From: Leptogorgia sarmentosa
Taxonomy: Eukaryota
Assembly (NCBI GenBank): GCA_964658305.1
Contig: OZ210885.1
Location: 16,058,001 to 16,122,000 of the forward strand
Direction of reading: 5' to 3'
DNA: 64,000 nucleotides
The notes beneath the pieces are model-generated. The model ran no database searches. It was not told the origin of the DNA and saw only the letters and a program-made list of their open reading frames with translations. The translations under genes were made by a program, and so were the position numbers. This document shows positions 2,499 to 57,878 of this stretch, one piece after another. The first letter of the stretch is position 1; every line of letters begins with the position of its first letter.

Positions 2499-3031
2499 TC
2501 TTATTTTGAGTTGAACGACGATGGGCTTGTCGACTCCGACGGTGCAATGGAGCCCGGACCCAAACAAGTCGCCGCACTCAGGGGGGTCACTACAGGTGAC
2601 GCGGATCGACAGGGGTCATGAGCACCTCCCCTGTGCCATGATGCAACTGAACGATCCGGTGCTATCCACCTTCACGCCCAGGGATCCCTAACCTAATGGT
2701 GGTGAAATGGTCAGATGATGATGTTAAGCTAGACGATTACAACATGAGCAGCAACCCCTATATCAAAACCTGTGCCACCCGCTTGGAACAAGTCCAAGCG
2801 AACCACAGGGCAAAAATTGAAACAAACAAACTACCCAATCCGATACAGGCAGTACAACCAATAAAGGCGACCGCCAGATCTTCATGGGAGGACAATACAG
2901 ACCAACATTAAACATAAAGACAAATGTGCTGTCCAGTCCAAAACAACAGACAACTATACAAAGATAAACAAACTAGTCCAGAAGGCGACGACAGTACAAC
3001 CAGTAAAGGTGACCGTCGAGCCCCTAGACCA

Positions 3032-6000
3032 CTACATTAAACACAAAGAACGAAAAAAGGAGAAGAGGGAGGAAAAAGAGAAGGACTCAGGTGATAAAAT
3101 CCAGAAAGCAGAAAAGACGACGGGCATGTGGCTAGTGGGAGAGAACCCAAATAAAATAGTATTCACTGGCAGTGAGGGAGCATTCGGCCGGAATTTACAA
3201 AAAATTGACTGGAACCAGTCAAAGACCGATACGGAAAATGGGCAAGAGGTGAATAGATGTAGCAAATTCTCTTGCTCTCCACAAAAGCACAGCAGGTCGA
3301 CTCTCATCCCAAACCGAACCAAACGGTCAGTCGTGGGTAGGATGCCGTGGAAGGACAGCCAAGCAGTGTCTTGGACTGACCTCACAAAACGCCACAGACG
3401 AAGCGAGGCCCACACAGCTTGCCATGCGACATTAATACGCCATTCTCTAAACTTGTTCACAGAACGATGTTCAACGGCGGAAGAGTGCCGGAGTAGGGAG
3501 TACCCTGTACGAGCAGTCAGCTCGGAGAGAGGAAGTAGTTGTCCAGAAGGACGAGGGATGACCCATTCGCCCTGCTCGCTCCTACCCTTCAAGAGGACAC
3601 ATGCAGTGAACACGCCCCGATAACAGGGAGGGAGTTTTTTTATTAGGTACGCTGCCAGAGGATCACGAGCGAGTACTTGCGGTACTGACTGACCAAAAGT
3701 GCCAACAACAAGGTGAGCAAAAAGGGATGACCACGGGTGGCTTTGATGGAGAAAAAAACGACCGAGCCATACGGCACGAAGGGACAAAAGTTTATTATTA
3801 ATGTCGACAACATTCAGGCCCCCGTCACTAATGGGCTGAACGACTGATGTGCGAGCCATCCACTCTTTCTCTTTTTTCCCCAAACGAAGGGAAAGATGAT
3901 CTTGTTGACTTTAGCTACAACTACCTTTGGCATGTCGAAGGCCGTTGCCTGGTACCAAAATAGCGATAGACCGAGTGTGTTGACTATCAAAGCTCTACCC
4001 CGAAACGACAGTTGACGCTGTTTCCAAACACCCAACTGCCGCTCCAACCTTCCTACTAGGGTGTTCCAGTCAGCTCCCTCTACATTAGCTATACGGCAAC
4101 CCAGCACGGTCATGGACTCGCTTGACCAATTCAACTGGATTGGTAGATTGGTCCGGCCCTTCCAGGACCTGAAAAGAAGACCATTGCTTTTATTGATGTT
4201 GAGCTTCGCACCGGAAGCCAGCTCATACCGTGCAAAAAGAGAAAAGAGTGACCGGAGGGCTTGCTCCGAATGGACGATGATGGATGTATCATCCGCGTAC
4301 TGGAAGATTTTGATTGTCTCCCCGTTTGGCAACAGGAAGCCGTCGACATGTAAGTCTTTTTTGATGGCACACGAGATGGTTTCAGCCACAATGATGTAAA
4401 GTAAAGGAGAGAGAGGACACCCCTGACGAACTCCCCGAGTAACATTAAAAGCACCACTGGTAAAACCGTTTACTAAGACACAGGAAAATATATTGGTGTA
4501 TAGGAGCTTGACCCACCCACGAAAGGACAGACCAAAATTCATTTGCTCTAAGACACGTAGCATAAAACCCCAATCAACCCGGTCAAAAGCCTTTTCTTGA
4601 TCTAGAGATATGACTGCACCTCCAGTATTGTTATGATTACAAAGATTAACGATGTCCTGTAATGCTCGAACATTCAGGCCAGAAAAACGTCCAGGAACGC
4701 CGCGGGCTTGGGATTCGGAGGTAACTGATGATAAGACGGTTTTGAGGCAATTTGTAAGCACCTTGGACAAGATTTTATAGTCAGTGCATAAAAGAGAAAT
4801 TGGTCGCCAGTTTTTAACATCTAGTCTGTCATTTTTCTTATGTAGGAGGGAGATTCAACCAGTGCGCTGGAAAAAGGAAAGAGCACCTTGTGCCAGACAA
4901 TCATTGTAGACCGCTACTAAGTCGGGACCCAAGATGTCCCAAAAGGACTGATAAAATTCATAGGGTAACCCGTCCAGATCTGGAGATTTGTTGCGTTTGA
5001 AAGAGTTTAGCGCACGCTGGCATTCCTGTAGAGTCACCTCGCCTTCACAAAGCTGGGCTTCCTCTGCAGACAAGGATTGCTCTAAGCTATTTAAGAAAAA
5101 GGACTGATCTGGAGAAGATAGAATGGACGCAGAAAAAAGTTGCACATAAAAAATGCACCAAACTCGCAAGATCGCAGAAATAGATCTTACAATGGTGCCT
5201 TGTGCGTCTCGGATGCCGGTGAACAGGCGCCGCGATGCGTGCACCTTCTCTTGTCTAAAGAAAAAGGCAGAGGAAGTTTCACCTTCCTCAGCCCACTGTT
5301 GGTTGCCCCGAATACGTGCACCTTGGGCTACGTGGTGGTGTTCGAGCTCCAATTTATCCTGCACTTCCTTTATTAGGTGATTCACATCCTCACCGTCAGC
5401 AACTCGTTTATGAAGGTGTTCAAGCGTGGATTCTAAATCACGCATACTCAAGCGCCTCGAGCGAGCCTTGCCCCGAGAAAAATGACGAAGAATTTCCTTC
5501 AAACGAGCCTTGCCCGCATCCCACCAAATAGCTAAGGACGGAAAGGTATCTTTCTCAGATTGCCACGAGACCCAGAAGTTACAGACTTCCGTGCACAGAG
5601 TCTCTTCACGCAGCAAAGATGTATTGAATTTCCACACACCAGGACCACGTCGCGGTAAAGATGGAAAGGCCACGCGGAGGAAGACATAAGAGTGGTCTGA
5701 GCGGAAAAAAGGGAGAATGGTTACTTCTGAAACGTGTTCATGTAATAATGATGATATCCAGAACATGTCCAGTCGGGAAGCCTGGGACCTGTTGGCCCGG
5801 CGACACGTATAACCTCGCTCAGTTGGATGCGCCAAGTATCGACCAGATCGCACCTATCGGTCAGCGAAGAAAGGGAGGCAGGCCAGTTGTAAGCCCAAGG
5901 GGAGTCGGGGTTACAGCCCAGTCGGTCTATATGCGGATCAACTACCACATTGAAATCTCCGCACAAAAGAGTGGAAAAGGAAGGGTCAATCATCTGATGT

Positions 6001-6410
6001 AGAGATGAAAAAAAGTCCTCGCCAGCTTGTTTCTGATTTGGACCATGTATATTTACAACTTGAAAAGTGGACTCAAGGTCAACATGCTTTAAACACACGA
6101 CAATGACCCGGCCACTCGTGTCCCTGTTAATACTTTCCACCTGAAAACATGGCTTAAATAGAATCGCTACCCCCACACTACGAATAGTGCCCGGGGAAGA
6201 TTCAACACCGTATTGTTGTAAATTATTGTGCTCTAGGGTCTCTGTCTGTAGCCAGGAGAAAAACTCGTCTTCAGAACGACTATGCGTTTCATGAAGAGCT
6301 ATGATGTCAGGTTTGGCACAATTCAGCCAGGAAAAAAGAGTTTTACAATTAGGACCATTGCATAACCCTTGAACATTTAATGTGATTATGGTTACTTCTT
6401 GGTTAGCCAT
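3032..6410 (-). pseudogene. Tx1 ORF2 (APE endonuclease + reverse transcriptase), frameshifted
   Basis: TLNVQGL, GDFN, SDH, SLDQEKAFDRVDW, GVRQGCPLSPLLY, FQYADD and a C-terminal Cys/His motif (CFCGEQENLLHLFTSC), spread over four ORF-track frames. Confidence 0.9.
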
Positions 6411-6464
6411 AATAAATGTGTGAAAAAGATGTAACTATTATTATTCTATACAAACAAGGGGGAC

Positions 6465-7724
6465 TTAGAAGCTACCATCATCAGAAGTGACAGAGTCACT
6501 TGCAAAAAAGCGACGGAGAGCAAGAGTTTCTTCAAAAGCTTGATTTACTTCTGGTCTGAAAAGATTCGAGGGGCTAGCTACAGTAGAAGAGCTAGCACCA
6601 ACCGGGGCGAAAGGAGTTAGAAGGGAGTCCGATAATTCGTTTCCGATGTCTGAGAGCAAGCCATCAACAATTAAATCAATATCTGACATTCCCTCAATAG
6701 AAGGAATGCCAAACGTTAGAGAGGGGATATGTGGTCCCTCATCCTCCGGCAGGGGAACATTCTCAGGTAATGGTCTCTCGGAATGCTTAACCTCTGGTTG
6801 GATGGTCGTAGGGGGCTCTTCACGCGAAGATGCCTCTTCACTCTCCACGTGAGAATTCTTGCGGAGAGGAGAATGTGAACGGGCCTTGTCAGTTGACTTG
6901 GAAGTTCGATGGCGCTTAGGACGAGGCGGTGGGATAGGGGGGCGTTCTTTGGGCAGGGAACCACTTGCCTCTGGTGTCTGGGACTCACTAGCTCTAGATG
7001 GAGCAAGAGGCAAACCCGAAGAAAGGGCGCTGCCCAAACTTCCGGAGGTCGCGCCAGGCTCAGAGGTCACTGTGTCCAACAAATTGGCCATGGTCTCCCG
7101 AACCTGCTCGTTCTCTTGGCCCACCGTGGGCCGTACCTCACTACCAGGTGTTTCATGGCTAGCCTGTGTTGACCCCTCAACAGCAGGCCGGGATAGAGCG
7201 GGGCAAGCCGACCGATTGTGGCCTTCCTGTCCACACCCGAAACAAAGACATTTTTGGCCCTTATGATGCACGAAGCACCAGTGGCCGGCAATTCGCATGC
7301 GAAAAGGAATGGGTTGCTTTATTTCCATTAACACATGCCTGACCCCAGTATAAATGCGAGAATACACCTCGGATGTGATTTTGCGGATTTCACCGAAGTC
7401 ACTGAGGACTTTGGAGATCTCTTCATCCAGGACCCCGTAAGACAGGCGGGTAACATTAACCCAGGTGTATTTGGACACCGACGGGAATTTGACAGGGAGG
7501 CCCCGCACGGTTAAACTCGTATGTTCGGCAACCTCCATCTTCTGAGCTCCCTTGAAGGTGACGCGGAACCGACCAGGGGCCATCATCGCGACAGCCTCAA
7601 ACACAGAAATATAATCATCGACCTGCCCTCTGAACTCATCGATGACCTCCTTTACATTTACTCTGTGCGCCTCGATGCTGTCAGAAAGGATGACATCGCA
7701 GGTGCGATTGACGTGAGGAATCAT
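6465..7724 (-). CDS. Tx1 ORF1 nucleic-acid-binding protein (CCHC zinc knuckle, disordered C-terminus)
   Basis: Open ~420 aa frame with YTGVRHVLM and CFGCGQEGHNRSAC, directly upstream of ORF2. First ATG at 7724. Confidence 0.85.
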   Translation of the reverse strand: MIPHVNRTCDVILSDSIEAHRVNVKEVIDEFRGQVDDYISVFEAVAMMAPGRFRVTFKGAQKMEVAEHTSLTVRGLPVKFPSVSKYTWVNVTRLSYGVLDEEISKVLSDFGEIRKITSEVYSRIYTGVRHVLMEIKQPIPFRMRIAGHWCFVHHKGQKCLCFGCGQEGHNRSACPALSRPAVEGSTQASHETPGSEVRPTVGQENEQVRETMANLLDTVTSEPGATSGSLGSALSSGLPLAPSRASESQTPEASGSLPKERPPIPPPRPKRHRTSKSTDKARSHSPLRKNSHVESEEASSREEPPTTIQPEVKHSERPLPENVPLPEDEGPHIPSLTFGIPSIEGMSDIDLIVDGLLSDIGNELSDSLLTPFAPVGASSSTVASPSNLFRPEVNQAFEETLALRRFFASDSVTSDDGSF

Positions 7725-7816
7725 CCTCACCACACTATATTACTATACTTTATATTATATATATTTATACTATACTATATTATTATATTTATATATTTAT
7801 GATTTACTAAATTGCA

Positions 7817-8311
7817 TTCGAGAACCAAAGTCTCGAAAAAAAGGAAAGAGAAAAAAAGGAAAGAAGAAAAGGACAAATTTAACTTCGAGAACAAAAAGTC
7901 TCGAAAAAAGTATAACTAACTTCGAGAACCAAAGTCTCAAGAAAAAGGAAAGAAAAGAAAGACTTAACCTGATTCGAGAATGAAAGTCTTGAAAAACAAG
8001 TTAGCCAAATCCGAGAACCGAAGTCTCGAAAAGCAACCTAAATTAATTCGAGAACCAAGTCTCCACTACCAACTTGACTAACTCGAGAACCAAGTCTCGA
8101 AAAACAAATTAACCTAAGTCGAGAACCAAAGTCTCGAAAAACAACTTAACTTAACCGAGAACCAAGTCTCGATAACTAACTTAACTTAACCGAGAACCAA
8201 GTCTCGAAAACACACTTAACTTAACCGAGAACCAAGTCTCGATAGATAATTTAACTTAACCGAGAACCAAGTCTCGATAACTAACTTAACTTAACCGAGA
8301 ACCAAGTCTCA
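7817..8311. repeat. Array of ~13 palindromic CGAGA-ACCAAG-TCTCG units in the Tx1-B 5' UTR
   Basis: Units recur every ~35 bp (longer spacing near 7817-7970) with variable A/T-rich spacers. CGAGA and TCTCG are reverse complements. Confidence 0.9.
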
Positions 8312-8485
8312 AAGCATGAAAAAAGAAGGGAGGAACGAATCTCTCCAGAAAAGAAAGGAAAAAGGAGCCTGTCCTAGCAATTCCCCCTAGGGGGCCTCGC
8401 AGTCAAGCACAGCCACGCGGTGCACCACCAAGGCCGAAGCCAAGGAGGCCTGAGCCGACTGAAACGATCCAAAGGAATGGACTAG

Positions 8486-8672
8486 TCAGCACAGGGACGG
8501 ACACCACAGGAAGACAGCACAGGAACGGACTGGACAGCACAGGAACGGACTGGACAGCACAGGAACGGACAGCACAGGAAAGGACAGCACAGGAAGACAC
8601 CACAGCACAGCAACGGACTGGACAGCACAGGAACGGCCAAGGCAGGACAGGACCACCAGACTGAACAGCACC
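8486..8672. repeat. GACAGCACAGGAACGGACTG-type minisatellite in the Tx1-B 5' UTR
   Basis: Visible 12-20 bp tandem units. The same repeat occurs at 22843-22992. Confidence 0.85.
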
Positions 8673-8744
8673 ACGGATGACGGAAAGGATATCTTCTGCA
8701 GCAGGAACCAGACTTCGGTAGGAAGACCACCAACTTTCAGTATT

Positions 8745-8767
8745 TCTTAGCCAAAAGGCCGAGAAGC
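8745..8767 (-). pseudogene. U2: U2 snRNA 5' fragment (nt ~4-26)
   Basis: Minus strand GCTTCTCGGCCTTTTGGCTAAGA matches the conserved U2 5' end. It is preceded by a remnant of the upstream motif GCTAATGGCAGCGCGAAGGAGG. Confidence 0.85.
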
Positions 8768-9129: not shown

Positions 9130-9282
9130 AAGTTGGCCGTACTCGGCGGTAGTGCAATACCAAGACAACCCGTGGCCAGGGCGAAGCAAACTTCAATCCC
9201 ATGGCCGAGGTCCAAAAATCAGTTTAATATATGAGTTAGGACATTGCCTAACACATCAGATATTAAGCTGATAAGAACAGAT
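9130..9282 (-). pseudogene. U2: U2 snRNA 3' portion (nt ~38 to end)
   Basis: ATCTGTTCTTATCAGCTTAATATCTGAT, Sm site GATTTTTGGA, and stem-loop IV CTTGGT-ATTGCACTACC-GCCGAG. Confidence 0.93.
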
Positions 9283-9576
9283 TGTAACAAATTTATTCAA
9301 AACAAGAATTAAATATTTACATTTCTAGATAATTACTATATAAGCAGGCTATAAACACAGCTGTTAAATTATACGTACAAAGTGAGAAATTGCTGATCTC
9401 ATTAGAGAAGGATGATCGACTGGATAGTGTTTGTATTGTATTTCATGTGATTGGAATGATTTAAGATATCACTTATGGTGTGATATACGTATTAACTAAG
9501 AAAGGACGACAAATAAATAGAATTTCTTTTACATGAGTTGATGATGATATAAGATTAGTATAATAATGATATTATA

Positions 9577-17933: not shown

Positions 17934-17950
17934 TACTACACTTGATCTTA
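17934..17950 (-). pseudogene. U2: U2 snRNA internal fragment nt 22-38, including the branch-point recognition sequence
   Basis: TAAGATCAAGTGTAGTA lies between the Tx1-C 3' end and the Utopia-like 5' end. Confidence 0.88.
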
Positions 17951-18531
17951 TTTTGAGTTGAACGACGACGGGCTTGTCGACTCCGACGGTGCAATGGAGC
18001 CTGGACCCAAACAAATCGCCCCACCCAGGGGGGTCAGGTAACGCGGATCGACAGGGGTCGTGAGCCCCTTCCCCGTGCCATGATGCAACCGTGAGTGGCC
18101 TGAACGATCCGGTGCTAACCACCTTCACGTCCAGGGATCCCTAACCTAATGATGCTGAAATGGTCAGATGATGATGTTAAACTAAACAATTACAACATGA
18201 GCAGCAACCCCTAGATCAACACCTGTGCAACCCGCTCGGAGCAAGTCCAAGCAAACCACAGGGCAAAAATTGAAACAAATAAACAACCCAATCCGATACA
18301 GGCAGTACAACCAATAAAGGCGACCGCCAGATCTTCATGGGAGGACAATACGAACCAACATTAAACATAAAAACAAATGTGCTGTCCAGTCCAAGACAAC
18401 GACACAAAAACAAACGAGTCCAGAAGGCGACGACAGTACAACCACTGAAGGCGACTGTCGTGCTCCTAGACCACTACATTAACACAAGGAAAACGAAAAA
18501 GGAGAAGAGGGAAGAAAGAAAGAAAAAGGGA

Positions 18532-21049
18532 TCAGGTGATAAAATCCCTGGTAAAGCGGATCCAGTCCTGCTCAGTAAGAGAGCCAATTACACCATCTGC
18601 GAGCCACTCGTGGACAAACCGGTCCCGAGGGCAGTGCCGTTTGTGCATTCGCACTAAAAAGCGGAAGGTGGTCTTCGCCTTCTTCAGGGTGGTGGGAACA
18701 TTTGGAGCAACGTGATCAAAACGATGGGCGTTGCGGCTTAACCAAATGGTGTGTCTTAGTACACCCAGCAAGGCAGAAAAGACAGCGGGCACGTGGTGGT
18801 TTGGAGAGAACCCAAATAATATGGTGGCAACTGGCAGTGAGGGCGCATTCGGTCGGAATTTGTGAAAAATTGACTGGAACCAGTCGATGATCGATACAGA
18901 AAATGGGCAAGAGGTGAATAGATGGAGCAGATTCTCTTGCTCTCCACAAAAACACAGTGGATCCACTCTCATGCCAAACCGAACCAAACGATCGGCCGTG
19001 GGTAAGATGCCGTGGTAGGACAGCCAAGCAGTGTCTTGAACTGACCTCACAAAGCGCCACAGCTGTAATGAGGCCCACACAGCTGGCCATGTGACGTCAA
19101 TGCCCCAGTCTCTAAATTTGGCAACTGAACGATGTTCAATGGTGGAGGAACGCCGGAGCAGGGAATACCCTGTACAAGCAGTGAGCTCAGAGAGAGGAAG
19201 TAATTGTCCAGAAGGACGAGGGATGACCCGTTCGCCCTGCTCGATCCTACCCTTCAAGAGGACCCATGCAGTGAACACGCCCCTATAACAGGGAGGTAGT
19301 TTTTTAATTAAGTAGGCTGGGATCTGATCCCGAGCCAGAACATCAGCAACCGACTGACCAAACGCTAACTCGGTATGGTAGGAAAAGAAGCGGGACCATG
19401 GGTGCATGTGGTTAGCAAAAAAACGACGGAGCCAAACAGCACGAATGGACAAGATTTTATTTGGGGTGTCAACTATGTTTAATCCACCGTCTCCGATGGG
19501 CTGGACCACGGATGTACGCGCCATCCATTCGTGCTTTTTCCCCCAAACAGAAGGAAATATTTTGTTGATTTTAGCAATCGTCATTTTTGGCAGGTCGAAA
19601 ATAGTCGCTTGGTACCAGAAGAGCGACAGCCCCAAGGTATTTATAATGAGTGCTCTGCCCCTAAAAGACAGCTGACGCTGTTTCCATAGTGACAATTGTT
19701 GTTCCAACTTTGCTACTAAAGTATCCCAGTCGGCAGATTCTATATTGGCAACCCGACACCCCAGCACAGTTATGGCGTCACTGGACCAATTGAGCTGGAC
19801 AGGTAGGTCAACCCTATTCTTCCAGGAACCAAAAAGAAGACCATGGCTTTTAGCAATGTTTAGTTTTGCACCTGACGCTTCTTCGTATTTCTCAAAGAGA
19901 GAAAAAAGCGACTGTAGGGCTTTCTCGGAGTGAACAATAACTGACGTATCGTTGGCATACTGAAAAATTTTAATGGTCTCCCCATTGAACATTTGAAAGC
20001 CGTCAATATTGAGGTCCTTTTTTATTGCGTTTGAAATGGTCTCTGCCACAATTATATAGAGTAATGGAGAAAGAGGACACCCTTGACGAACGCTGCAAGT
20101 GATGGTAAAAGCATCGCTCACAAAACCATTAACTAAAATGCGAGAAAAAATGTTGGTGTATAGGAGTTTGACCCATGCACAAAAGGACGGACCAAAATGC
20201 ATCTTTTCCAAAGTGCGTAGCATAAACCCCCAGTCAACTCGATCAAAAGCCTTCTCTTGATCTAAAGATACTATGGCGCCACCGGTATTGTGGCGATTAC
20301 AAAAATTAACTACGTCTTGTAATGTCCTGACATTCAGCCCGGAAAACCAGCCAGGAACACCACAAGCTTGAGATTCCGAGATTACAGAAGAAAGTACTAC
20401 TTTAAGGCGATTAGTAAGCACCTTAGATAGAATTTTGTAATTGGTGCATGAAAGGGAAATGGGCCGCCAATTCTTAAAGTCCAAACGGTCATTTTTCTTA
20501 AAGAGAAGCGAGATTAACCCAGTTCTCTGAGAAAAGGAAAGAGCACCTCGTGCCAAGCAATCATTATATACAGAAACTAAATCAGGTCCTAATGTGTCCC
20601 AAAAGGACTGGTAAAATTCGTACGGTAGACCGTCAAGACCCGGAGATTTGTTATGCTTGAAAGAATTCAAAGCTCGTTGGCATTCAGGTAATGTGACTTC
20701 TCCTTCACAAAGTAGGGCTTCTTGAGAAGAAAGAGATTTATCTAAACTATTGATGAAAAAAGACTCATCCTGGGGTTTATATAAACTAAGTTTATAAAGT
20801 AATGCAACCCCGGCACTACGGATAGAGCCTGGAGAAGATTCTACTAGATAGTGTTGTAAATTATTATGTTTGCTAGATTCAGTAGCTAGCCAGGAATTAA
20901 ACTCTTCAACTGACCGACAATGTTGTCTCCTGAAGTGCAATGATGTCTGGCTTGGCACAATTAAGCCAGAAGAAAAAGGTTTTCCGATTTCGGGGATTAT
21001 GCAATCCCTGTACATTTAAGGTTATAATAAATAAGTGTTGCTTATCCAT
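18532..21049 (-). pseudogene. Tx1 ORF2; most of the endonuclease is deleted and RT YADD is mutated to YAND
   Basis: 827-aa frame with SPGLDGLP, NWRPISL, DQEKAFDRV, RQGCPLSP and FQYAND. It jumps from early EN directly to the linker. Confidence 0.88.
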
Positions 21050-21174
21050 CTTGATTGTATGGGGGGTATACTGTATGATTCTATTACTTTTACTATGTTG
21101 CTATATTATTATTGTACTATTTGACTATATTACTATTTGACTATATTACTATTACTATATTAGCAAGAAACTTG

Positions 21175-22251
21175 CTAAAAACAACTTTCCGACCCATCAT
21201 CGGAAGGAGCACCGCTTTCAGAAAGAGGGCGCAGCGGGAAAAGAGTTTCTTCAGAAGCTTGATTTTCTTCTGGTCTGAAAAGATTCATGGGGCTAGCTGT
21301 ATTAGAAGAGCTAGCACCAACCGGGGCAAAAGGAGTTAACAGTGAGTCCGATAATTCGTTTCCGAAATCTGAAATGGAGCCATTAACGATGACATCAAAA
21401 TCTGACATTCCCTCAATGGAAGGAGTGCCAACCATTAAAGAGGGGATGTATGGTCCCTCATCCTCCGGCAGGGGAACATTCTCAGGTAGAGGACTTACAA
21501 AATGCTCGACCTCTGGCTGGATGGTCGTAGGGGGCACAACACACGAAGACGCTTCTTCACTCTCCACATGAGAATTCTTGCGGAGAGGAGAACGTGAGAG
21601 GTCTTTGTCAGCTGACTTAGAAGACCGACGGCGCTCACGCCGAGGCGGTGCGATAGGGGGGCGTTCCTTGGGCAAGTAACCACTTGCCTCTGGTGTCGGG
21701 GACTCACTGGCTCCAGATGGAGCAGAAGGCAAAACCGAAGTAGGGGCGCTGCCCGAACTTCCGGAAGTCGTGCGAGGCTCGGAGGATACCGTGTCCAACA
21801 AGTTGGCCATGGTTTCTTCAACCTGCACGTTCTCTTGGCCCACCATGGGCCGTACCTCACTACCCGGTGATTCGTGTCTAGCCTGTGCTGACCCCTCAAC
21901 AGCAGGCCGAGAAAGAGTGGGGCAAGACGACCGATTGTGGCCTTCCTGTCCACACCCGAAACAAAGGCGTTTTTGTCCCTTATGATGCACAAAGCACCAG
22001 TGGCCGGCAATTCGCATGCGAAAAGGAATGGGATGTTTTATCTCCATTAACACATGCCTGACGCCAGTATAGATATGAGAGTACACCTCGGATGGGATTT
22101 TACGGATTTCTCCAAAACCGCTGAGGACTTTGGAGATCTCTTCATCCGGGACCCCGTAAGACAGGCGGGTAACATTGACCCAGGTGTATCTAGACACAGG
22201 CCGGACTTGCCCTCTGAACTCATCGGAGGTGCGATTGACGCGAGGAATCAT
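21175..22251 (-). pseudogene. Tx1 ORF1 with N-terminal in-frame deletions
   Basis: Paralogous to 6465-7724 (CFGCGQEGHNRSSC) but lacks two N-terminal blocks. Confidence 0.8.
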
Positions 22252-22305
22252 CCTCACCACACGATATTACTATACTATTATTATATTTTAAATACTAAAT
22301 TGCAT

Positions 22306-22678
22306 ACGAGAACCAAAGTCTCGTAAAAAAGCGAAGAGAAAAAGGGAAAAAAGAACTTAAAACGAGAACCAAGTCTCGCAAACTATAGACCGAGAACCAA
22401 GTTTCGAAAATTCTAAATTAACTAGGCAGAGAACAAAGTCTCGAAAACACACTGTAGTTAACTCGAGAACCAAGTCTCGAAAACTAGCTAAACCGAGAAC
22501 CGAGTCTCGAACACACACTTAACTTATCCGAGAACCAAGTCTCGCAGACTAAATTAGCTTAACCGAGAACCGAGTCTCGAAAACTAACTAAACCGAGAAC
22601 CGAGTCTCGAACACACACTTAAACTAAAACCGAGAACCAAGTCTCGAAAACTAACTAAAACGAGAACACAGTCTCGAA
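22306..22678. repeat. Array of ~11 palindromic CGAGAACCAAGTCTCG units in the Tx1-C 5' UTR
   Basis: Same unit as 7817-8311, with different spacers. Confidence 0.9.
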
Positions 22679-23062
22679 CAGGAAGGGAAGCAGAAAAGAG
22701 GAACGAATCCCTCTAAAAAGGAAAGGAAAAAGGAGCCTGTCCTAACAATTCCCCCGAGAGGGCCTCGCAGTAAGGCACGATCACACGGTGTACCACCAAG
22801 GCCGAAGCCAAGGAGGCCTGAAGCGACCGACACGAACCAAAGGAACGGACTGGACAGCACAGGGACGGACAACACAGGAACGGACTGGACAACAATGGAC
22901 AGCACAGGAAAGGAACAGCACAGGAAAACAGCACAGGAACGGACTGAACAGCACAGGAACAACCAACAGGACAGGACCACGAAACTGAACAGCGTCACAG
23001 CAAGGAAATCTTCTTCACCAGAAACCAGACTTCGGCAGAAAGACCACCAACTGTCAAAACAA

Positions 23063-23413: not shown

Positions 23414-23511
23414 ATGGCCAAGGTCCAAAAATCAGTTTAATATATGAGTTAGGACATTGCCTAACAAATCAGATATTAAGCCGATAAGAACAGAAACTAC
23501 ACTTGATCTTA
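23414..23511 (-). pseudogene. U2: U2 snRNA nt 22 to ~120 (3' truncated)
   Basis: TAAGATCAAGTGTAGTTTCTGTTCTTATCGGCTTAATATCTGAT...GATTTTTGGACC. Confidence 0.92.
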
Positions 23512-24943
23512 TTTTGAGTTGAATGACGTAAGGTTTCGATCATTTCTGACCTGATTCTGGTAGTTCAATGGAACCTCACCTTGTGCAAACGCAGGTGGCG
23601 CTGACCGTCAGGGGTTGTGAGCCCCTCCCCCGTGACATGAGACAACCATGAATGGCCTGAACGATCCGGTGCTAACCACCTTCACGCCCAGGGATCCCTA
23701 ACCTATCATGGTGAAATGGTCAGATTATGATGTTAATCTGGATGGTATCAACATGAGCGGCAACCCCACTGATGCAGCAAGATCGAAAAACATTGAAAAG
23801 CCTGTGCAACCCACACGAGTACAAACCCGAGTGAACCACAGGGCAAAATTAAAGATGCAAGAACAAAGAACATCATCAGACACAGACTGTGCAACCAATG
23901 AAAGCGACCGTCACGTCATCAGATTAACACACACTGCCATCAAATCGCTGACTGTTGCGACTAAGCGAAATATGATGCCGAAGTACACCAAGCAACGCTG
24001 TGTAAGCAACGGGAACACGAGAACCTGAAGAGAAACCAAAGAGTATGTCCGAAAGAGAAGACACAGATGGACATGCGTGTTGTACCCGAGCCAAAAACCA
24101 GTCAAGAACTGCCTTAGCAACCTGACATCGAGCGAAAAGATGAGCCAGGTCTTCCGGAAGACCACAGAAACAATCTGGGTTGACATGGGTTCACGATGGC
24201 CAACTTAGTCAATGCCCATATCACGGAATTTGGCTAAGGAACGATGCTCAACTTGCCGCTGCCGCGAGAGGAACAAGTACCCCTGCGAAGCCAACGGAGG
24301 AGCATGAAATACCAGCTCCATATGATGAGTAAAAAAGACTGACCGAGGATGAGGAGAGGTCGACAAGTATCGTCGGAACCAGACAGCCTTCAATGAGGAG
24401 ATTTTACATGCCACGTCGACCACGCCCAACCCACGATAGGATGCGGGCTGCTTGACAGAAGAACGAGCCATCCATTCACGTTTCTTCCCCCACACAAAGG
24501 GGAAAAGGATCTTATTAACGGCATTAACAACAGACTTGGGTACATCAAAATTGGTGGCTTGATACCAAAAAATGGAAAGTCCCAATACATTTGCGATTAA
24601 TGCACGCCCCTGGAACGGCAACTGGCGCTGTTTCCACAACACCAATTGGCCTTGAAACTGGCCAAGCAACGATATCCAGTCAACCTCATTATTATCATCA
24701 TTGGACCAATTCAGCTCAATCGGCAAATTGACCCGCTGCTTCCACAACCCAACCAAAAGCCCATGACTCTTAGCAACATTCAGTCTGGCACCAGATGCCC
24801 GTTCATACCTCTCAAACAAAGAAAACAAGGCCTGTAAAGCACGATCAGATTGAACGAGTATACTGGTGTCATCCACATACTGGACAATTTTCACTGTCTG
24901 ACCTCCAGGCAAGGCGAACCGTCGATTGCCGGATCTTTCTTTA

Positions 24944-26613
24944 CAGTACATTCGTTTTGATTATGCAAATCGAAGTTCTAGCTATACAATACGAATCAAT
25001 GTGGAAATAATAGCTGTAAACATATATGTGGTAAAAGAAGCTATAATTGTTTGTCCAGTGCATAATATTAATAGCTAAAATGATATTTGTGAACAATTAT
25101 ATGCTTGAAAAACGAAATAAGTCACGTCTGAAAGCGTCCGGCTTCATTACGCAAGGTAGTTTACTGAGCACACAAACATGGGCAACAACAGAGATTAAAA
25201 ATTACGGTTAAAAATTACGTCAATGTTAGGCAGTGGAAGTCTACGCTCGGAATAGCAAAAAATATGAATCGTGACCATAGAACCATCAAGAAATTTGTGT
25301 TTTCTGGCAAAAGCAAGAGAAAAACGCCAAAAAGAAGCCATTTGAGAAGGCTATCCCATAGGGACATTCGCAAACTAAAGATTGAGATTGCAAAGACACC
25401 CCACGCAACAAGTAAAACAATATTTGACAAAGCTGATGTCCCAAAAATGGGGAAAATGGCCCGATGCCAAACTCTGAAAAGTCTCGTCAAAGTGATGAAA
25501 CCAATAAAACAACCTCCATTTACCAAAATTCATCAATCGAAAAGGTTAGAATGGGCTCAGAGGTATATGAAGACAGATTTCCAGAATGTGTTGTTCACAG
25601 ATGAGTGCCATGCTACCCTCGATGGACCGGATGGTTGGTCGTCCGCTTGGATACTCCATGGTCGTCAACCCTAAGTTAGGATTCGTTGTCAACCCCAAGT
25701 TAGGATTCGTCGTCAACCCCAAGTTAGGATTCGTCGTCAACAAGGTGGCAGAGGGGTAATGTTTTGGGCAGGAATCAAAGGAGACTTCATTATTGGACCG
25801 TTCAAATCGAGCAAGGGGTTAAAATTAATTCAGAATCTTACTGCGAGCTCCTTAACAAATACCCCATGCCTTGGTTGGAGGAGCAGCCTCTGTCTCTGTG
25901 GAGAACCATGATTTTCCAGCACGACAATGCCCCCATGCATAAATCGAAGTACACCTCTGAATGGCTTAAAAAAGCTGGCTTCAACAACGACAAGGTGATG
26001 ATGTGGCCTCCGAATAGCCCGGATTTAAATCCCATCGAGAACTTGTGGGCAATCATCAAGAGGAGTATACTGCAATGGAAGGCAATTTACAAACTTGAAT
26101 GACCTCTGGAATGCTATTAAAAAAGTCTCGGCATCGATAACACCTACTGAAATATCAAATCTTACCACTTCAGTTGACCAACGCCTTGTGAAAATTCTAG
26201 GAAATAATGGATGTCATGTTCATGCATAATAGCATGACATGTCAATTTATCGCTTTCATTGTACAGCCACATATTTTCCAAACCAGATTGAATTTTTGTG
26301 TTTCGCTTGTTGTTGGCTGATGGTTTTTAATTATAAAGTATGTTGCAGCTATTTGTTTTGTGATATGAGCCCAATATCAGCCTTGAAATATCGTAAATGG
26401 CAAGTTGCATAATCAGAGCGAACATCAGTTTTTACATTATTTCACAAAGTGGTGTGATTAAAATTGATTTGTTCTAATATTTTAATATTTTGGTTTATAA
26501 AATTTACGTACGGATGTGATATAATCATCTACTGTTGCAATTTTGAAAACGGGTAGCTGAAGAAAGTTCCAGCATGTATATTATGGATTTGCATAATCAA
26601 AACGAACATACTG
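24944..26613 (+). mobile_element. Tc1/mariner DNA transposon
   Basis: TIRs CAGTACATTCGTTTTGATTATGCAAATC / GATTTGCATAATCAAAACGAACATACTG with TA on both sides. Confidence 0.93.
25178..26229 (+). pseudogene. Tc1 DDE transposase (disrupted)
   Basis: VLFTDE, FQHDNAP and WPPNSPDLNPIENLW. A 24-bp triplication with a stop lies at ~25662-25741, plus frameshifts. Confidence 0.9.
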
Positions 26614-51595: not shown

Positions 51596-51915
51596 AAAAA
51601 TGACGAGTGCATTTGAATTGGAAATGATTGTCTAGTATAAAATGCATGATCAGTTGGCAGCGCGTATCGATTGACTCATTCATTCATTCCGTGTGACGTG
51701 CATACAACAAGGTGTCAGTAATCCAATATTGATTACATGGTTATATATTAGTTTCGAATGACCGCGAAGTAGTATCGAGTAACACATGTTCGTGAAACTC
51801 GCGGCCAGTGTGAAGAACACATAGAATTGTTGTCCCTTCAATAAACTAGGATGCCCGACGACACTTATAATATCAGTTTTGAGTGTGAGAAATGGGAATA
51901 ATAAAATGATGATAA

Positions 51916-52015
51916 AGGGGACAGGCTCGAAGTCAACCCAGTCAAAGTGCAATGAAAGGGCCTCATCCTGAGAGGACCTCCTAGTTGATCAAGGTGCCTC
52001 TCGTATCAGGTAAGT
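51916..52015 (-). pseudogene. U1: U1 snRNA pseudogene with an internal deletion (stem-loop III and Sm site missing)
   Basis: ACTTACCTG 5' end, TGATCA loop I, TGAGGC..CATTGCAC loop II and GTTGAC, then directly TTCGAGCCTGTCCCCT resembling the U1 3' end. Confidence 0.82.
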
Positions 52016-55000
52016 TTATGTTGGATATAGGCAAATCCATCCCCACTGGGGGGGCGTGCAATGGATTTCCCTAAATCGAGGAGGGTGCTACCGGCACGCA
52101 AACGGCTAGGGGGACTATCCCTACTTCCTCATTATTATTCTGACACCTCGATTAGTGCATTTATTTCAGGCAGCAACAGGGATTTAAAAAGAGAACGACC
52201 CCATTGAACCGATCCAGGCACTACAACCAACGAAGTCGACCACCCTTCACGGAACGGCAGAGGAAGAAAAAAGGATTAAAAAACCTAAATAACTAAAAGG
52301 AGAAGACCAGCTCCTCACCCTCGAAATGCCCTAAAATACCACAAGTGAGCCAATCCCACTCAAAGGATCGCAATTGAGCAGTGAGCTTGCACCGACAACC
52401 AAAAAGACGAAGGAGAAACTTTATTTTTGCGATGGCTTTCGCTTGGCAATCCCAGGCGATTGGCCGCTTATCGTGGAAACGGAAATCACAGCACGCCACC
52501 CAGATGGTATGTTTCATCATGTGGAGCATCCACACGATGATGGGAGGCACAATGTGCCGCCGTTCGGACGAGAACCTGAACAAGAGTTCCGTGACGGTAA
52601 ATGGTGCGACAGTAGGACAGATCTGCTATAAAATATAATAATTTATATTTCTTCATCTGCTCGACAGAAACAGCGCATATCGATGTTGGGCATGTTAAAG
52701 CGGGTTCCCAAGCGTGAACCCGTGTAAAGAATGCCGTGAATTTGGCAATACAATGTGGCTGGCTATTTAAATTGCTTTGACTGATGTGGTACACGTTTCT
52801 ACTAGATATGTTATCCACAGGTAGTGGAGAGGCAGACGAGGCAGCAATGCATAAGTCATTGCCGGTAAGACCACCGTCGAGAGATTGCCACACGCGAAAG
52901 ATGATACAATAGAACTCGGGAAAGGCTCGCAAACGACGCTGGGAAAAAGAAGATAAAAGGACCTCACAAGGCTTGGAACCAAGTGAGGCAGAAACAAAAT
53001 GTTCAAAAAAGTCGTTCCATTTGCCACGATCTTCGGCAAAATAACGTTTTACCCATTGAAGGGCAAAAGCGTCTGCCTTGAGTTGGAAATCGATAACTCC
53101 AAATCCACCCTTGGATTTGGGAAGGCAGACTACTTTGTGGGCAACAAGATCCCGCTTGCCAGACCAGAAGAACTTCCAAACGGCCTTGTGAATTCTCTGA
53201 ACCGCCCACTTCGGAACAGGGAAGACGTGAAACAAATGCCATATCTGGGACAAGGCCAAGGTGTTAATGATTGTGGCCTTGCCCTGAAAGGAGAGTTTGC
53301 GTCCAGACCAGTCTGACAAAGGAGGCAGGGCCCCTCACACATATTTGTTGAATTATATTTGTCGTGGCATATCACAGCATTACTGCAATTTCACATCCAC
53401 TTTAGATTTAATTTGTCTTGCATATTCATTTTCTGTATTAAATAACAAAATAAAACCGAATGACGGATAACAAAGTGCCAACGGTCAACATGGGTGCATA
53501 TATGGCTAAAAATTAACACGAATATAATACAAATTAGATATAGTAACCGTTACTGTACATATTTCTGTTTAGTCAGATGATGATCTGTAAACGTTGTGCC
53601 TACGCGATTTCTTCATTGCAAAATCATTGATCAGCGATGAAACTGAAAGGTTTCGCAGCAGTTTCGCTTCAATGCTTAGACGTGTGAGACTGTTCAGACG
53701 TTTCTGTCCCATTGAAGATCGAATGTTACTCTTGATTAGTTTATGTTAGGAAAACAACCTTTCGCCAGAGCAGTTCGAAATCATCAAACTTAAATAAATT
53801 CGTAGTACGATGACAGTATTTGGAAACACTCTCTCCAGATTTTCCGCGACGATTAAGCGGTAAAGGCGCAACTCGGCTGATTCAACGCACAGTAGATAAT
53901 TGTCGTCATCAGCTTCGTTGATGTCCGATTCGTCAGAGGATGTTGCACTCTTCTCCTTGGAAGAACCGGCAGGGGTTGTTGGGACATCAGATACTTCAAA
54001 CTATTTCTCGGCAAAGTCTGTCTTTAAAAAACTTGAAAACTGCAATAGTTGATCAGACAGGCTGTCCTCGAGATCAGTGGGGTAGGCTTTCTGCAGTTTG
54101 ATGGCACATTCGATTAGCTCTTCATTCGACAAGTTCTTAAGGGTTCGCATGAAGCCAAACATAGCAGCAATTTCTGCATAGGCAGCTAGTCGTTTCTCCA
54201 ATTCACTGGCAATACTGTCAACAATTACCAGGAAGGTTACTGTTCGAAACTTGTCGACCGGAGTCTTGGGCTGTTCAGGTGCTGCTTTGGGATCGTCGTA
54301 ACGGCGATTACGTCGACGCATTCGTTTCACTTTCACCTTGTATTGGTCACATTCACTTAATGCTTTTCCCCTGGTTTCAAACTCTTCAAGTCTAGTCCGT
54401 AACTTTCGGATAAACTCCAGAACAGATTTATAGATTGCAACGGCTGAATTGATGTCTTGCTTGGCGGACTGTAGGGCTTGACTGCTGCCGTGAAAACAAT
54501 GCAAGATGTGGTACCACAAAACTGATACAATGCCAGTTTCCAACCGATTCATAACGTCGACGTAGCCTCGGGCTTCTTCGCGAGCCTCAGCTTTTTCTTC
54601 CACGTCGTCAGCAAGTTCCACCAAGGCATCGCAAATTTTCGTCATAGCCATCTACCAGTGCTTTCATCACATCCACACGTGCAGACCAGCGAGTATCCGA
54701 CATGCGCTTGAGAGTGGGAAGCCTTTTGCTAGACAGTTTTTCGTTAAGAACCTTCCAGCGATGCGTTGACGAGGAAAAAAGAGAATACAATCCTTGCAGA
54801 AACTTGAAAAAGGCAATGGCTGCCAGACAGCAACCTGCCGCAGATTCACCAACCAGGTTCAACGAGTGTGCAGCACATGGTATATAATGAGCCAACTCAC
54901 AATGTTGTTGAATGATGGCCTGCATGCCATTGTACTTTCCACTCATATTACTGCCATTGTCGTAGGACTGACCTCTGCAAGCTTTCGGCTAATTGTCGTC

Positions 55001-57878
55001 CAGTATGACCCTGCATGTCAGGGAAGGTAGGAAGGCCCAAAAATAATTTTTAATACGCGAACAGTGAATATTAAATTAAAATGCGCAACGTGCAAGGGCC
55101 CCAAATTTGCACGCAAACCAGGGGGCCCCATATTGACAAGCAAACCACGGGGGCCCAAATTAATGTGCAAACGGAGGGCCCCAAATTAAATTGTTATGCG
55201 AAACACGGGAAGGGGGAATCGACATACGTGAGGAGTGGGGGGGGGGCAAATACACAAATTTCGAGGGGCCCCAAATGTGAACCACAATGGGCGTATCATT
55301 TTCCAGAAAAGGGCGTGACCTATTGAAGATCGGGGCCCCTGAAAGCGCGGGGCCTGGGGCATATGCCGCATCTGCCATGTGCTTAATCCAGGACTGGTCC
55401 TCACGCTCAGCATACTCAATGAGATCCCGGATGAGAAGAGGTTCTCGGAGATAGTACGGCCTGGAACACCGCATGTCTGATCTGGCCACACAACAGACCC
55501 GATGACGGCTAGGAGACGACCCGAAATAGCTTGAGTAGCTATTTTATAGTCGGCATTGAGCAGACTAATCAGCCGCAAGTTCTTTGTCTCCAAGCGGTCA
55601 TTCTTTTTGTATAATACAATGATCAGACCTCAACGCTGAGAGGTGGAAAGCTGGCCGGACTCGTAAGCAACGTTGAGGACGCAAACCAGATCAGCACCAA
55701 GGCATGACCAAAACTTTAGGTAGAACTCCATGGGGAAGCCATCGGAACCCGGAGTCTTTCCTCTAGCCATACCAGATAAGGCAGTAAAGCACTCCTCTAA
55801 AGAGAGAAGACCCTCACAACACGCATGTTCCTCCTTACTAAGGCGGTTAGACAGCTTTGACAGCATCTCATCCTGAGCAGATATATCGCAGGGTGCCACA
55901 GTAAAGAGTCCGGTGTAATACCGCCGCCAGACGTCCAAGATCTCAAAAGGGTCGTGGCGCACGGAACCGGTGTCGGGGTCTTGAATGGAGTGCATCTCCT
56001 GCTTTGCATGACGCTAAGTGGCTAAATTGAGAAAAAGGAGGAGGAAGTTTCCCCCTCCTCAGCCCACTGACAACGAGCACAAACTTGTGCCCCTCTCGCT
56101 TCATGCACAGCAATGCCTCGGAGCTCTTCTTGTACCTCGCAAAGCTTAGTGAATGCAGAGGTATCCCCTGCTTCAAAAAGACGTTGCAGTCTGTGCATTT
56201 GCTTGGTCAGAAAGGATTTATGCTCGCGTCGGTCCAGCTCCTTTGACCGACTAAAAGTCTGTGTCACTTCACAAAGGTAGAATTTCCCTTGGTCCCACCA
56301 ATCCAAAAGTGAAAGGCCTCAGGTGTATAATGGGCCTGCCAGAAGGACCAAAATGAAGTGACAAGGGAGCAATAATTTTCATCGTCCAGGAGGGAAGTGT
56401 TAAACTTCCACACTCCAGGACCACTAACAATACGATAACCGAATTCGAACTTGATCAGCAAGTATTGATGATCGGATAAAAAGGAGCGACGATATTCACA
56501 TTCCCTAATAGACTGTTCCAGACATGTCGGGGCCCAGACCATATCAATGCGCGATGCAAAAGTTCCGGAACCATGGGTCCAGGAATAAGCCTTCTGTGTG
56601 GGATGTAATGTACGCCACACCGGGTATGTCTGGGTATGAGATAGTAGGCCTGCAAAGCCGGGCCACTTTCCTGGGCGCGTGAAGAGGCAGCACCAGTGTA
56701 AGAAGCATGCCGAAGCCAATCCCGATCCTCGTCTAGCACAGAATTAAAATCACCACAAACAAATGTGGGCCTGGTAAGATCAATTAAACCAGGAATTGAA
56801 GAGAAAAAAGTGTTGTGAGCCGGATTCTCATTTGGGGCATATAGTGAGGTGAAACGTAGCTGATCTTCCCCAAAATCAACCAAGACTTGGACTAACCGCC
56901 CATCATCATCTCGAATCACCTGTTTAACCTTGTGAGAATCTTTAATAAGAATAGCCGTGCCACAACGCTTATTTGAAACTGATGACGAGACAGCTCGAAA
57001 GCCAGAATTAGCGAACTACTTCCTAATGGATTCATGCGGTTCGTTTAATATGGTCGTTAAGACCATTGATGTTAATGGACAACAGACTCGCCATCGGAAT
57101 CTGATGTCCCAGATGTGGGCAGCTCACCAAGAAGGAGCTCCTCAATTGATCAGCACAAAGCTGATCACTAAAAGTCGTGCATGTCGAAGATGCACCAACC
57201 TCACTGCCATCATCGCGGAGACCAGACAGTGAGGCTTCATGGATCGATACCAGTGCCTCGAAAAGATCAAGGGATGACTCAAATTGTTGGGACGAGACAT
57301 CCACTGCAGGAGGGTCCTGCGAAGCAGCATTATCATCAAGGCAGAGGCAAGAGCAGGCGCAGATTCATAAGCGACGATAGGATCAACTACCGTATCACCA
57401 CTCAAACACTTGTCCACGTCAGCCTCTGCCTCCATGGCCTCAGGAGTGGCAGTTGGAGTAGGAGGGCTCGGGAACCCTGGCCACACGCTAACGTTGGTCG
57501 GACTCGAAGGAGCAGGAGCAGACTGGCATACCCTCTTGCACACTATACACTCTTCATCCTCACTACGCGAGGAGGAAGAGGAAAAAGGAACATCCCTGGC
57601 GGAGTTGGCCCTAACACCCTTAGGTGACTTGGAAGATGACTTGCCAAGGGGACGTGGGTGTGCATAGGGGATTGGAAGCGCAAAATCAAAGGATTTGCGC
57701 TCCAAATGCTCCGCAGTCAGAGGGTGGTCTGAGCAGACTTAGTCTTGCCAGCCTGACCAGACGGCACAGATGTCCTTCTAGCTTTCTTTATTATTCTCTC
57801 ACAAAGGTCTCCCTTGCGAGAAGAAGAGGAAGCTTGCGGGTTATTGCCATTCTTAACCGAAGCCACCGAAGGCTTAGA
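52016..57878 (-). mobile_element. Tx1-clade retrotransposon copy E (distinct family) whose 3' end abuts the U1 5' end
   Basis: ORF2 pieces MASLLSININGL, SLYAPN, VCGDFN, FLSDHQY, GPGVWKFN, TPGSDGFP, ISLLNADYKI, LSFQGKATIIN, GGFGVIDF, ending at 52293. Central RT lost next to the hAT insertion. Confidence 0.82.
53320..55396 (-). mobile_element. hAT transposon remnant (ZMYM1/Tip100-like transposase C-terminal half)
   Basis: RGQSYDNGSNMSG, YIPCAAHSLNLVG, SDTRWSAR and dimerisation motif SNCSGERLFS. One terminus CAGTCCTGGATTAA at 55396; the other end was not found. Confidence 0.82.

Follow-up and report, generated by a model that had tools for sequence, protein, structure and literature searches.

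A conserved AUUGCAC-loop hairpin near the 3' end of a Tx1 retrotransposon clade, probably a binding site for host U1A/U2B''/SNF-type proteins

The window analysed here, a 64-kb stretch of Leptogorgia sarmentosa DNA (assembly GCA_964658305.1, contig OZ210885.1, forward-strand positions 16,058,001 to 16,122,000), holds on its minus strand an array of U2 small nuclear RNA (snRNA) genes with Tx1/Keno-like retrotransposons lacking long terminal repeats (non-LTR) nested inside it, and our subject is a hairpin with an AUUGCAC loop that these elements carry in their 3' untranslated region (3' UTR). Genes and elements are given in window coordinates and lie on the minus strand. U2 is recognised at 9316-9127 (Rfam, 107.4 bits) and, as a partial gene, at 23532-23409 (58.5 bits). 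Element C (17946..23062) has an open first reading frame (ORF1, 22260-21175), which lacks about 60 amino acids (aa) of the ORF1 of element B, an ORF2 of 827 aa (21015-18532) with RVT_1 and zf-RVT domains, and a 3' UTR at 18531-17946. Its ORF2 is without the APE part of about 350 aa (PF03372) that is carried by relatives of 1183-1201 aa; the best relatives are proteins of 1183-1190 aa with an APE domain, the only named ones among them octocoral, and protein relatives reach up to 60-84% aa identity. Element B (2499..8744) has broken reading frames with RVT_1 and zf-RVT, and the 5' end of a further copy, A, directly abuts its 3' end (2498 down to about 1180). Element D (23507..24960) is 5'-truncated and belongs to a divergent family whose proteins are 46-50% identical to those of C. 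The RVT_1 and zf-RVT domains of B and C, the APE domain of their relatives and the presence of ORF1 identify the elements as Tx1/Keno-like.

The position of the elements within U2 can be read from their flanks. U2 nt 1 to about 25-27 precede B (at 8769-8745) and C, and U2 nt ~28-124 (23506-23409), beginning TCAAGTGTAGT, follow D. Further along the minus strand come a U2 promoter-like stretch, U2 nt 1-24 (23086-23063), element C, and U2 again from TCAAGTGTAGT, so that U2 is interrupted in its own orientation, and B, C and D share the 3' end TTCAACTCAAAATAAGA at 2499, 17946 and 23507 (three matches, 0.07 expected in the window). An earlier note on this DNA had proposed an snRNA 5' leader, which is borne out by B and C and also by an intact U1-targeting relative described below, preceded by U1 nt 1-15. 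Since leaders and flanks fall at snRNA genes, the elements sit in gene orientation just behind the snRNA start, and their transcription would be from the snRNA promoter, as the explanation we favour assumes.

In copies B (2532..2554) and C (17979..18001) the hairpin is identical, with a GGCUCC/GGAGUC stem, a closing C-G pair and an 11-nt loop AUUGCACCGUC (DNA GGCTCC-ATTGCACCGTC-GGAGTC at 2554-2532 and 18001-17979), and in C it is part of the minimum-free-energy fold of the last 102 nt. Copy D (23553..23575) has GGUUCC/AGAAUC around the loop AUUGAACUACC (DNA GGTTCC-ATTGAACTACC-AGAATC at 23575-23553), with a C.A mismatch at the closing position in what is a single decayed copy. Compared with B and C, D has replaced one C-G pair of the stem by U-A, a compensatory change, and its outer helix is AAGGU/ACCUU where theirs is UGGGU/GCCCA. 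Given the element ends at 2499, 17946 and 23507, the hairpin stops 33, 33 and 46 nt before the 3' end. A fourth copy lies in element E (52016..57075), a decayed Tx1-like element that is 33-52% identical at the protein level to the ORF2 of an intact metagenomic relative, L004, that is nearest to hairpin-clade members by protein comparison, and that runs up to the 5' end of a U1-like gene. Its hairpin (52033..52068) has an AAAUCC/GGAUUU outer stem, AUUGCAC at 52062-52056 and an inner mini-hairpin CCCC-CAGU-GGGG, and stops about 17 nt short of the 3' junction with U1. Both host snRNAs in the window offer a comparison. U2 stem-loop IV (SLIV, 9142..9164) pairs CUUGGU with GCCGAG, closes with U-G and has the loop AUUGCACUACC (ATTGCACTACC at 9158-9148); the U1-like gene (51812..52017) is degenerate (54.5 bits, E 2.6e-12, under the Rfam cut-off of 69.5) and its stem-loop II (SLII) has the C-G-closed loop C-AUUGCACUUU, with the heptamer at 51953-51947. 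The two host loops, U-G closed in U2 and C-G closed in U1, imply a host protein that reads this code. The earlier note had given the sequences and positions of the B, C and D hairpins and the U2 SLIV loop, and these hold exactly on the minus strand, SLIV lying inside the 107.4-bit U2 match; its distance of about 30 nt from the 3' end compares with the 33 nt of B and C.

Three related window copies alone prove little. Taken by itself, the heptamer occurs about as often in the window as expected (13 matches against 11.0), and a search of both strands for exact ATTGCAC-loop hairpins with stems of at least 5 bp returns four, namely B, C, U2 SLIV and a chance match at 33329. In Logan contigs of four sequencing runs the B/C-type hairpin stands at 25-80 times the depth of its flank, and the variants listed include none at 5% or more within it; in run X1 the contig depth is 5000-16000 for the B/C type versus about 86-141, the single-copy level, for the D hairpin. 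The loop of D is indeed one base from that of U2 SLIV, as had been pointed out, but because it comes from a single 5'-truncated, decayed, low-depth copy this likeness carries little weight. In contigs of X1 and X6, and as the prevailing form in X6, a B/C-type subfamily has GCGGCGAUUGCACC in place of the GGGGCGAUUUGUUU of C (window 18008 and upstream); this creates an additional AUUGCAC, with no C before it, 13 nt upstream of the hairpin. The core of the 3' UTR is about 90% identical between D (23592-23790) and B (2593-2760) or C (18035-18210) despite 46-50% protein identity, which suggests either strong constraint or that families have exchanged 3' UTRs.

Copies from other assemblies allow a broader comparison. 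A protein-guided scan of metagenome contigs gave at least 80 Tx1-like loci, with relatives at no more than 53% aa identity among the matches listed. Twelve of these loci have a conserved 3' UTR module in common, and 10 of the 12 carry an AUUGCAC-type hairpin at 20-45 nt from the 3' end; exact AUUGCAC opens the loop in L004, L007, L009, L010, L034, L036, L057 and L060, and AAUGCAC opens it in L012. L029, found separately, has AUUACAC, and two identical copies, L081 and L082, came from searching genome contigs with a DNA pattern. Scans of viral contigs for the element/U2 junction and for the 3' UTR module gave no match. The comparisons below use 15 copies: B, C, D and E from the window, ten from metagenomes (those just named by locus, L012 and L029 included) and L081.

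Exact AUUGCAC directly follows the closing C-G in 12 of the 15 copies. The deviant heptamers, in D, L012 and L029, have one mismatch each and all belong to decayed copies, and both copies with an intact ORF2, L004 (1201 aa) and L083 (1197 aa), have the exact form. Without exception among the 14 distinct sequences a C stands directly in front of the heptamer, and its partner is G in 13, D differing by its C.A mismatch. The 5' arms of the stem, in contrast, vary (GGCUCC, AAAUCC, CGAGC, CGGGC, UGAGC, CAAGC, GGUGGAC, UUGAGGC, GGUGGGC and others) and yet are matched by complementary 3' arms. We counted this covariation in 13 distinct sequences, leaving out C, which is identical to B, and L081, with pairs scripted from coordinates; MAFFT was unable to register the 3' arms, as loop lengths differ. 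Paired cells number 68 of 78, against 46.3 +/- 4.7 when 3' arms are shuffled among sequences, and none of 10000 shuffles reaches 68; sliding the partner by 1-3 positions leaves 21-41. Pairs 2 to 5 are formed in 13, 13, 12 and 11 of the 13 sequences, and each of them occurs as 3-6 pair types. Such covariation shows that the helix exists. Mean pairwise identity over the 14 sequences is 0.94 for the heptamer and 0.93 for the closing pair, falling to 0.60 for the next 3 nt, 0.39 and 0.34 for the stem arms and 0.44 for the upstream flank; the closing C-G and AUUGCAC are held constant while stem sequence, loop remainder and flanks drift. Loop conservation and stem covariation, which the earlier note had proposed to look for, are thus both present.

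What follows the heptamer takes two forms. Eight copies have 3-4 nt there (loops of 10-11 nt), and the other seven carry a 12-17-nt insert that forms a CCC-NNNN-GGG mini-hairpin (loops of 19-24 nt), with UUCG and GCAA among its tetraloops; since the mini-hairpin replaces the loop tail in these seven, their heptamer sits in what is a junction or an internal loop. In the RNAalifold consensus of six U1-subclade members the heptamer stays single-stranded, with the closing C-G on one side of it and the mini-hairpin on the other, and the hairpin belongs to a larger domain whose closing helix, of 8 bp, directly precedes the A-rich tail. A covariance model of 27 positions built from four sequences was too weak to be of use, scoring, beyond its training rows, L057 at 19.1 bits (E 0.16) and U2 SLIV at 17.4 bits (E 0.46) amid matches no better than chance. 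The 3' UTR begins with a conserved three-way junction of its own, closed by GGUAGG/CCUACC (L004:5339-5406) and seen also in L001, L007, L009, L010, L012, L014, L034, L036, L057, L060, L061 and L081; its first arm GGGGUUCGAUUCCCC resembles a tRNA T-arm, and a diverged form of the junction is present in B, C and D (UAGGGAUCCCUG...GAAGGUGG). In six members of the U1-targeting subclade (L001, L004, L007, L010, L060, L081) the main hairpin is preceded, at a distance of about 45-60 nt, by a second one whose loop is 11 nt long. Its loops are CUUGCACUCCA, UUUGCACGUCA or UUUGCACUCCA in L001, L004, L060 and L081 and AUAGCACUGCA and CUAGCACUGUA in L007 and L010, reading NUUGCAC or NUAGCAC, without A1 or U3; duplication of the main hairpin followed by divergence may have produced it.

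In a quick maximum-likelihood tree of the reverse transcriptase (RT) domain with 82 rows, from which seven rows with high-scoring segments under 250 aa, D and E among them, had been dropped, a single clade of 21 rows (SH-aLRT support 96) takes in every carrier. Under a strict automatic rule (C-G closed, at least 4 contiguous pairs, loop of 9-26 nt), 7 of the 11 assessable metagenome members of the clade have the exact hairpin and 9 of the 11 have it with at most one mismatch. L009 misses the rule solely through one A.C mismatch in its stem, the contig of L061 breaks off after GGAC-ATTGC, and the contigs of eight clade members end too early. Outside the clade the exact hairpin occurs at one of 41 assessable Tx1 loci, L072, where it lies behind a poly(A) tract and resembles a 3' fragment of U2, and we reject it as a feature of the element; the motif is accordingly not equally frequent in other Tx1 UTRs. 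The tail of a sister clade (L023, L024, L027) reads UUUGCAC, which we likewise set aside as a different element, as it forms a GUGC/GCAC mini-stem there. L019 and L020, which have U2 leaders and lie outside the clade, show no motif in the part of the 3' UTR that their contigs hold, so the hairpin is a trait of the clade and not something needed for hitting U2. Within the clade the motif is unchanged between families whose ORF2 proteins are 39-50% identical and whose ORF1 domains resembling an RNA recognition motif (RRM) are 27-32% identical, and from these comparisons the reader of the loop seems to be slow-evolving.

The clade is not confined to U2. B, C and D target U2, and E, L004, L007, L010, L012, L036 and L081 target U1; the 3' flanks of the latter six from other assemblies open with ACTTACCTGACGC, the 5' end of U1, with an Rfam U1 match of 104.4 bits in L012 and partial matches in L004 and L007. 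L029 is inserted in a U5 gene (5238-5355, Rfam 62.9 bits). The 9.7-kb repeat behind L081 contains an uninterrupted U1 gene and also an element, L083, whose intact ORF2 aligns over 1197 aa without a break (80% to L004). This element is bordered by a 13-bp duplication that comprises U1 nt 3-15, and the U1 promoter and U1 nt 1-15 lie upstream of it. When an element inserts at U1 nt 2/3, SLII follows about 60 nt beyond its downstream end. The 24-kb contig of L081-L083, a tandem array of this repeat with two eukaryotic U1 genes per unit, one of them with an intact Tx1 element, is labelled as an Anaerolineae metagenome-assembled genome and is host DNA binned with bacterial sequence. The U1 lineage as a whole (E, L004, L007, L010, L012, L036, L081-L083) inserts at the very 5' end of U1, its 3' junction lying between ...AAAA and ACTTACCTG, and is often found in head-to-tail element arrays. 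The hairpin had been put forward as a feature of snRNA-targeting Tx1 elements: this holds for members in U1, U2 and U5, but the hairpin is not tied to U2, four carriers have no recognisable snRNA in their 3' flank, and L019 and L020, with U2 leaders, show no such motif in the part of the 3' UTR that their contigs hold.

The constant part of the hairpin coincides with what U1A is reported to touch. In the accessible text of PMC2203988, U1A contacts AUUGCAC and the closing C-G pair, selection with U1A recovered the heptamer in loops of varied size, and an internal-loop site was also bound; a C10A change has little effect, while A1G costs 5.0 and G4A 6.4 kcal/mol. The claim that the loop is a U1A-type site is sustained to this extent. 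The elements have the determinants of a predicted U1 SLII-type site, with the heptamer unpaired at the 5' side of the loop, C-G closing and a free loop tail. They differ from the U2 SLIV type, which has a U-G or U-U closing pair and a G or a U2-type tail in its loop, in being C-G closed with C at position 7, and a UACC tail is present in D alone. From the C-G closing, C7 and the 10-11-nt loop we regard the hairpin as U1 SLII-like rather than U2 SLIV-like, the latter having been the earlier suggestion. In the fly, so far as the accessible part of PMC5992148 describes it, a C:G closing pair marks the tighter, U2A'-independent U1 mode of SNF and U:G the U2 mode. The U1 gene beside L081 reads C-AUUGCACUUG, and the element loops AUUGCACUUC and AUUGCACUGC match it at 8-9 of 10 loop bases. 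Set beside the complex of U1 SLII with U1A/SNF, the elements share C-G followed by AUUGCAC, loops of 10-11 nt in eight copies and a free tail and stem, and differ in that the predicted site lies in the 3' UTR of a retrotransposon RNA of 5-6 kb and that a mini-hairpin takes the place of the loop tail in seven copies. With U2 SLIV and U2B''/U2A' (SNF/U2A') they share the 11-nt loop of B, C and D, one base off in D, and differ from it in closing with C-G, the U2A'-independent type (PMC5992148, same part), where the host closes with U-G.

We conclude that the hairpin of this clade is a conserved 3' UTR element under selection and that it is probably, by a modest measure, a site copying the loop of U1 SLII to which a host protein of the U1A/U2B''/SNF type would bind. 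The protein would bind the element RNA about 20-45 nt from its 3' end; the RNA would end without a poly(A) tail, and the bound protein would give it a 3' end resembling that of a small nuclear ribonucleoprotein (snRNP). Such an end could protect the RNA, and the protein could keep it in, or bring it into, the nuclear neighbourhood of snRNPs and snRNA genes where the targets lie. Protection together with localisation appears to us the most likely pay-off. A block to polyadenylation is a possible second one, in the manner of the polyadenylation inhibition element (PIE) of the U1A pre-mRNA, which requires two heptamers and two U1A molecules. The elements resemble the PIE in having the heptamer in the 3' UTR, in an internal-loop-like setting in seven copies, a few tens of nucleotides upstream of an A-rich, AAUAAA-like end; they differ from it in that two canonical boxes are wanting, most elements having one and the second hairpin of six U1-subclade members (NUUGCAC/NUAGCAC) being without A1 or U3. 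The extra AUUGCAC 13 nt upstream in one B/C-type subfamily is a further candidate for a second box. An internal-loop U1A site and regulation of polyadenylation are both mentioned in the accessible part of PMC2203988.

Several observations weigh against binding by a host protein. Hairpin stability in the last 102 nt is no better than that of shuffles (z of -1.88, +0.84 and +0.17); with a heptamer that is not enriched and folds of ordinary stability, the case rests on conservation. The copies are related, and the cell counts therefore overstate the number of independent events; the tree comes from a quick search with SH-aLRT support only. L029, the copy in U5, has AUUACAC, the G4-to-A change that costs U1A 6.4 kcal/mol, although this copy is decayed. 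L009, L057, L034 and L060 keep the hairpin in the presence of 3' flanks that have no Rfam match or recognisable snRNA, and with four such carriers the motif tracks the clade and not the target. Read-through RNAs of copies in U1 and U2 already carry SLII or SLIV downstream, which makes an internal copy look redundant. A conserved stem-loop some tens of nucleotides from the 3' end is typical of the RT-recognised tails of stringent long interspersed elements (LINEs), and an RT or ORF1 protein (ORF1p) of the element that read the loop would give the same pattern of conservation.

The last point amounts to a different explanation, in which the hairpin is a handle for the element's own machinery, used by the RT of the ORF2 protein (ORF2p) at the target-primed start or by ORF1p for packaging in cis, and its likeness to a U1A site is a coincidence or a frozen ancestral state. 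Other LINEs require a 3' stem-loop, and here the hairpin lies 17-46 nt from the 3' end, within a larger conserved and covarying domain closed by a helix before the A-rich tail, and is present clade-wide whatever the target, copies outside recognisable snRNA genes included. ORF1 moreover has a predicted RRM-like fold (mean pLDDT 75.9) followed by a CCHC knuckle (C-x2-C-x4-H-x4-C), and all 50 PDB matches listed for the fold are RRMs, with E from 4e-3. Among these matches none reaches E <=0.001, and they are generic RRMs, not specially U1A-like; we accordingly set aside, as unsupported, the presence of a captured U1A-like RRM in ORF1. A chance agreement of seven loop bases, correctly placed within the loop, and of the closing pair has a probability of about 6e-5 for one motif named in advance, or by our own estimate about 1e-3 to 1e-2 when other famous loop motifs are allowed for, and this agreement was found in elements living in the two genes whose RNAs bear that very loop. 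The motif has not drifted although the ORF1 RRM-like domains of different subfamilies are only 27-32% identical, and the freedom of part of the loop and of the stem sequence mirrors what U1A ignores. We hold recognition by the element's own proteins to be possible and somewhat unlikely.

Two further accounts are less likely still. The hairpin could be a piece of U1 SLII captured long ago through read-through or template switching, with little or no function of its own: U1-targeting members have C-AUUGCAC-UU as in the host U1 loop, SLII lies about 60 nt downstream of a U1-inserted element and hence within read-through RNAs, and short interspersed elements (SINEs) mobilised by Tx1 pick up pieces of snRNA, according to the accessible portion of PMC4494074. 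A neutral relic, however, would not hold 0.93-0.94 identity beside stems at 0.34-0.39 with compensatory changes, and there is no similarity to U1 beyond the loop, stems and flanks being unrelated, so that mere capture is very improbable; as an origin, capture of U1 SLII may be correct and is compatible with binding by a host protein. It is hardly to be expected at all that the loop serves RNA-RNA kissing through its palindromic UGCA core, between two element RNAs or between the two hairpins of the U1 subclade, with the likeness to U1A sites incidental. UGCA is self-complementary and six U1-subclade members have the second hairpin with an 11-nt loop, but the contact would be 4 bp at most, the second loops of L007 and L010 (UAGCAC) are without UGCA, most families have a single hairpin, and kissing leaves unexplained why A1, U2, C7 and the closing C-G are as conserved as UGCA.

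Beyond binding by a U1A/U2B''/SNF-type protein, the 3' UTR as a whole might act as a portable snRNA disguise, by which the element RNA would be handled as an snRNP and delivered to its target genes, an extension that we consider speculative and rather doubtful. The disguise would consist of the U1A/SNF loop, the structured stem-loops and, in the U1-targeting subclade, an Sm-like AAUUUUUG upstream, together with a capped snRNA leader from the host promoter; an RNA of 5-6 kb might then be stabilised without poly(A) and imported, becoming concentrated at Cajal bodies and snRNA gene arrays, with host snRNP biogenesis doing the delivery. The conserved Sm-site-like AAUUUUUG lies 4-8 nt upstream of the three-way junction in L004, L007, L010, L012, L014, L060 and L081, with variants AAUUUUUA, AAUAUUUG and AAUUUCUG; it is single-stranded before the stem-loops and absent from B, C and D. 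The pattern RAU4-6GR has a frequency of just 0.22 per kb in the loci with this site.

Related systems are known for parts of this arrangement. Alu and other SINE RNAs derived from 7SL bind SRP9/14, and here too a retroelement RNA would keep the site of a host ribonucleoprotein component, predicted in our case, and use it for its own propagation; Alu, however, descends from a host RNA and is non-autonomous, whereas here an autonomous LINE carries a loop-sized copy whose descent from U1 is only conjectural. The 3' stem-loops of stringent LINEs (eel UnaL2, R2 3' UTRs) are recognised by the element's own RT and, to our knowledge, match no site of a host protein. They are alike in the conserved stem-loop near the 3' end with its invariant loop and covarying stem, and represent the main rival mechanism rather than relatives in sequence. 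Keno has been reported from cnidarians (PMC4640811, PMC4494074, in their accessible parts), and the elements here agree with Keno and other target-specific Tx1 elements in their ORF2 with RT and zf-RVT, the APE domain of their relatives and insertion in U2 in gene orientation; the same parts of the two papers mention no 3' hairpin and no Tx1 element targeting U1 or U5. Full-text searches of the openly searchable literature, to which subscription papers and Repbase reports do not belong, gave no description of a LINE with a U1A/SNF-type site.

The copies in U1 and U5 genes widen the known target range of Tx1, and a scan for U1A sites can flag the hairpin clade in cnidarian assemblies. If a host protein does bind, this would explain how site-specific LINEs without poly(A) stabilise and route their RNA and would link the choice of snRNA genes as targets to the identity of the element's ribonucleoprotein, with seven bases and one pair as a simple, mutable handle for testing that link.

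The remainder of the window holds further features. Another retroelement occupies about 9317-17933, with its RT at 16217-14793 and an integrase at 14147-13044; it is inserted in U2 about 12 nt downstream of C, and the U2 gene is thus split between 17934 and 9316. The presumed U2 upstream or promoter region occurs in two copies that are 85% identical, at 23099-23410 and at 51298-51595, the latter with no U2 after it and entering telomere-like repeats of the CCCTAA type near 51200-51260. A tandem array at 28500-30940 comprises about 28 copies of a unit of about 88 bp that are 85-93% alike.

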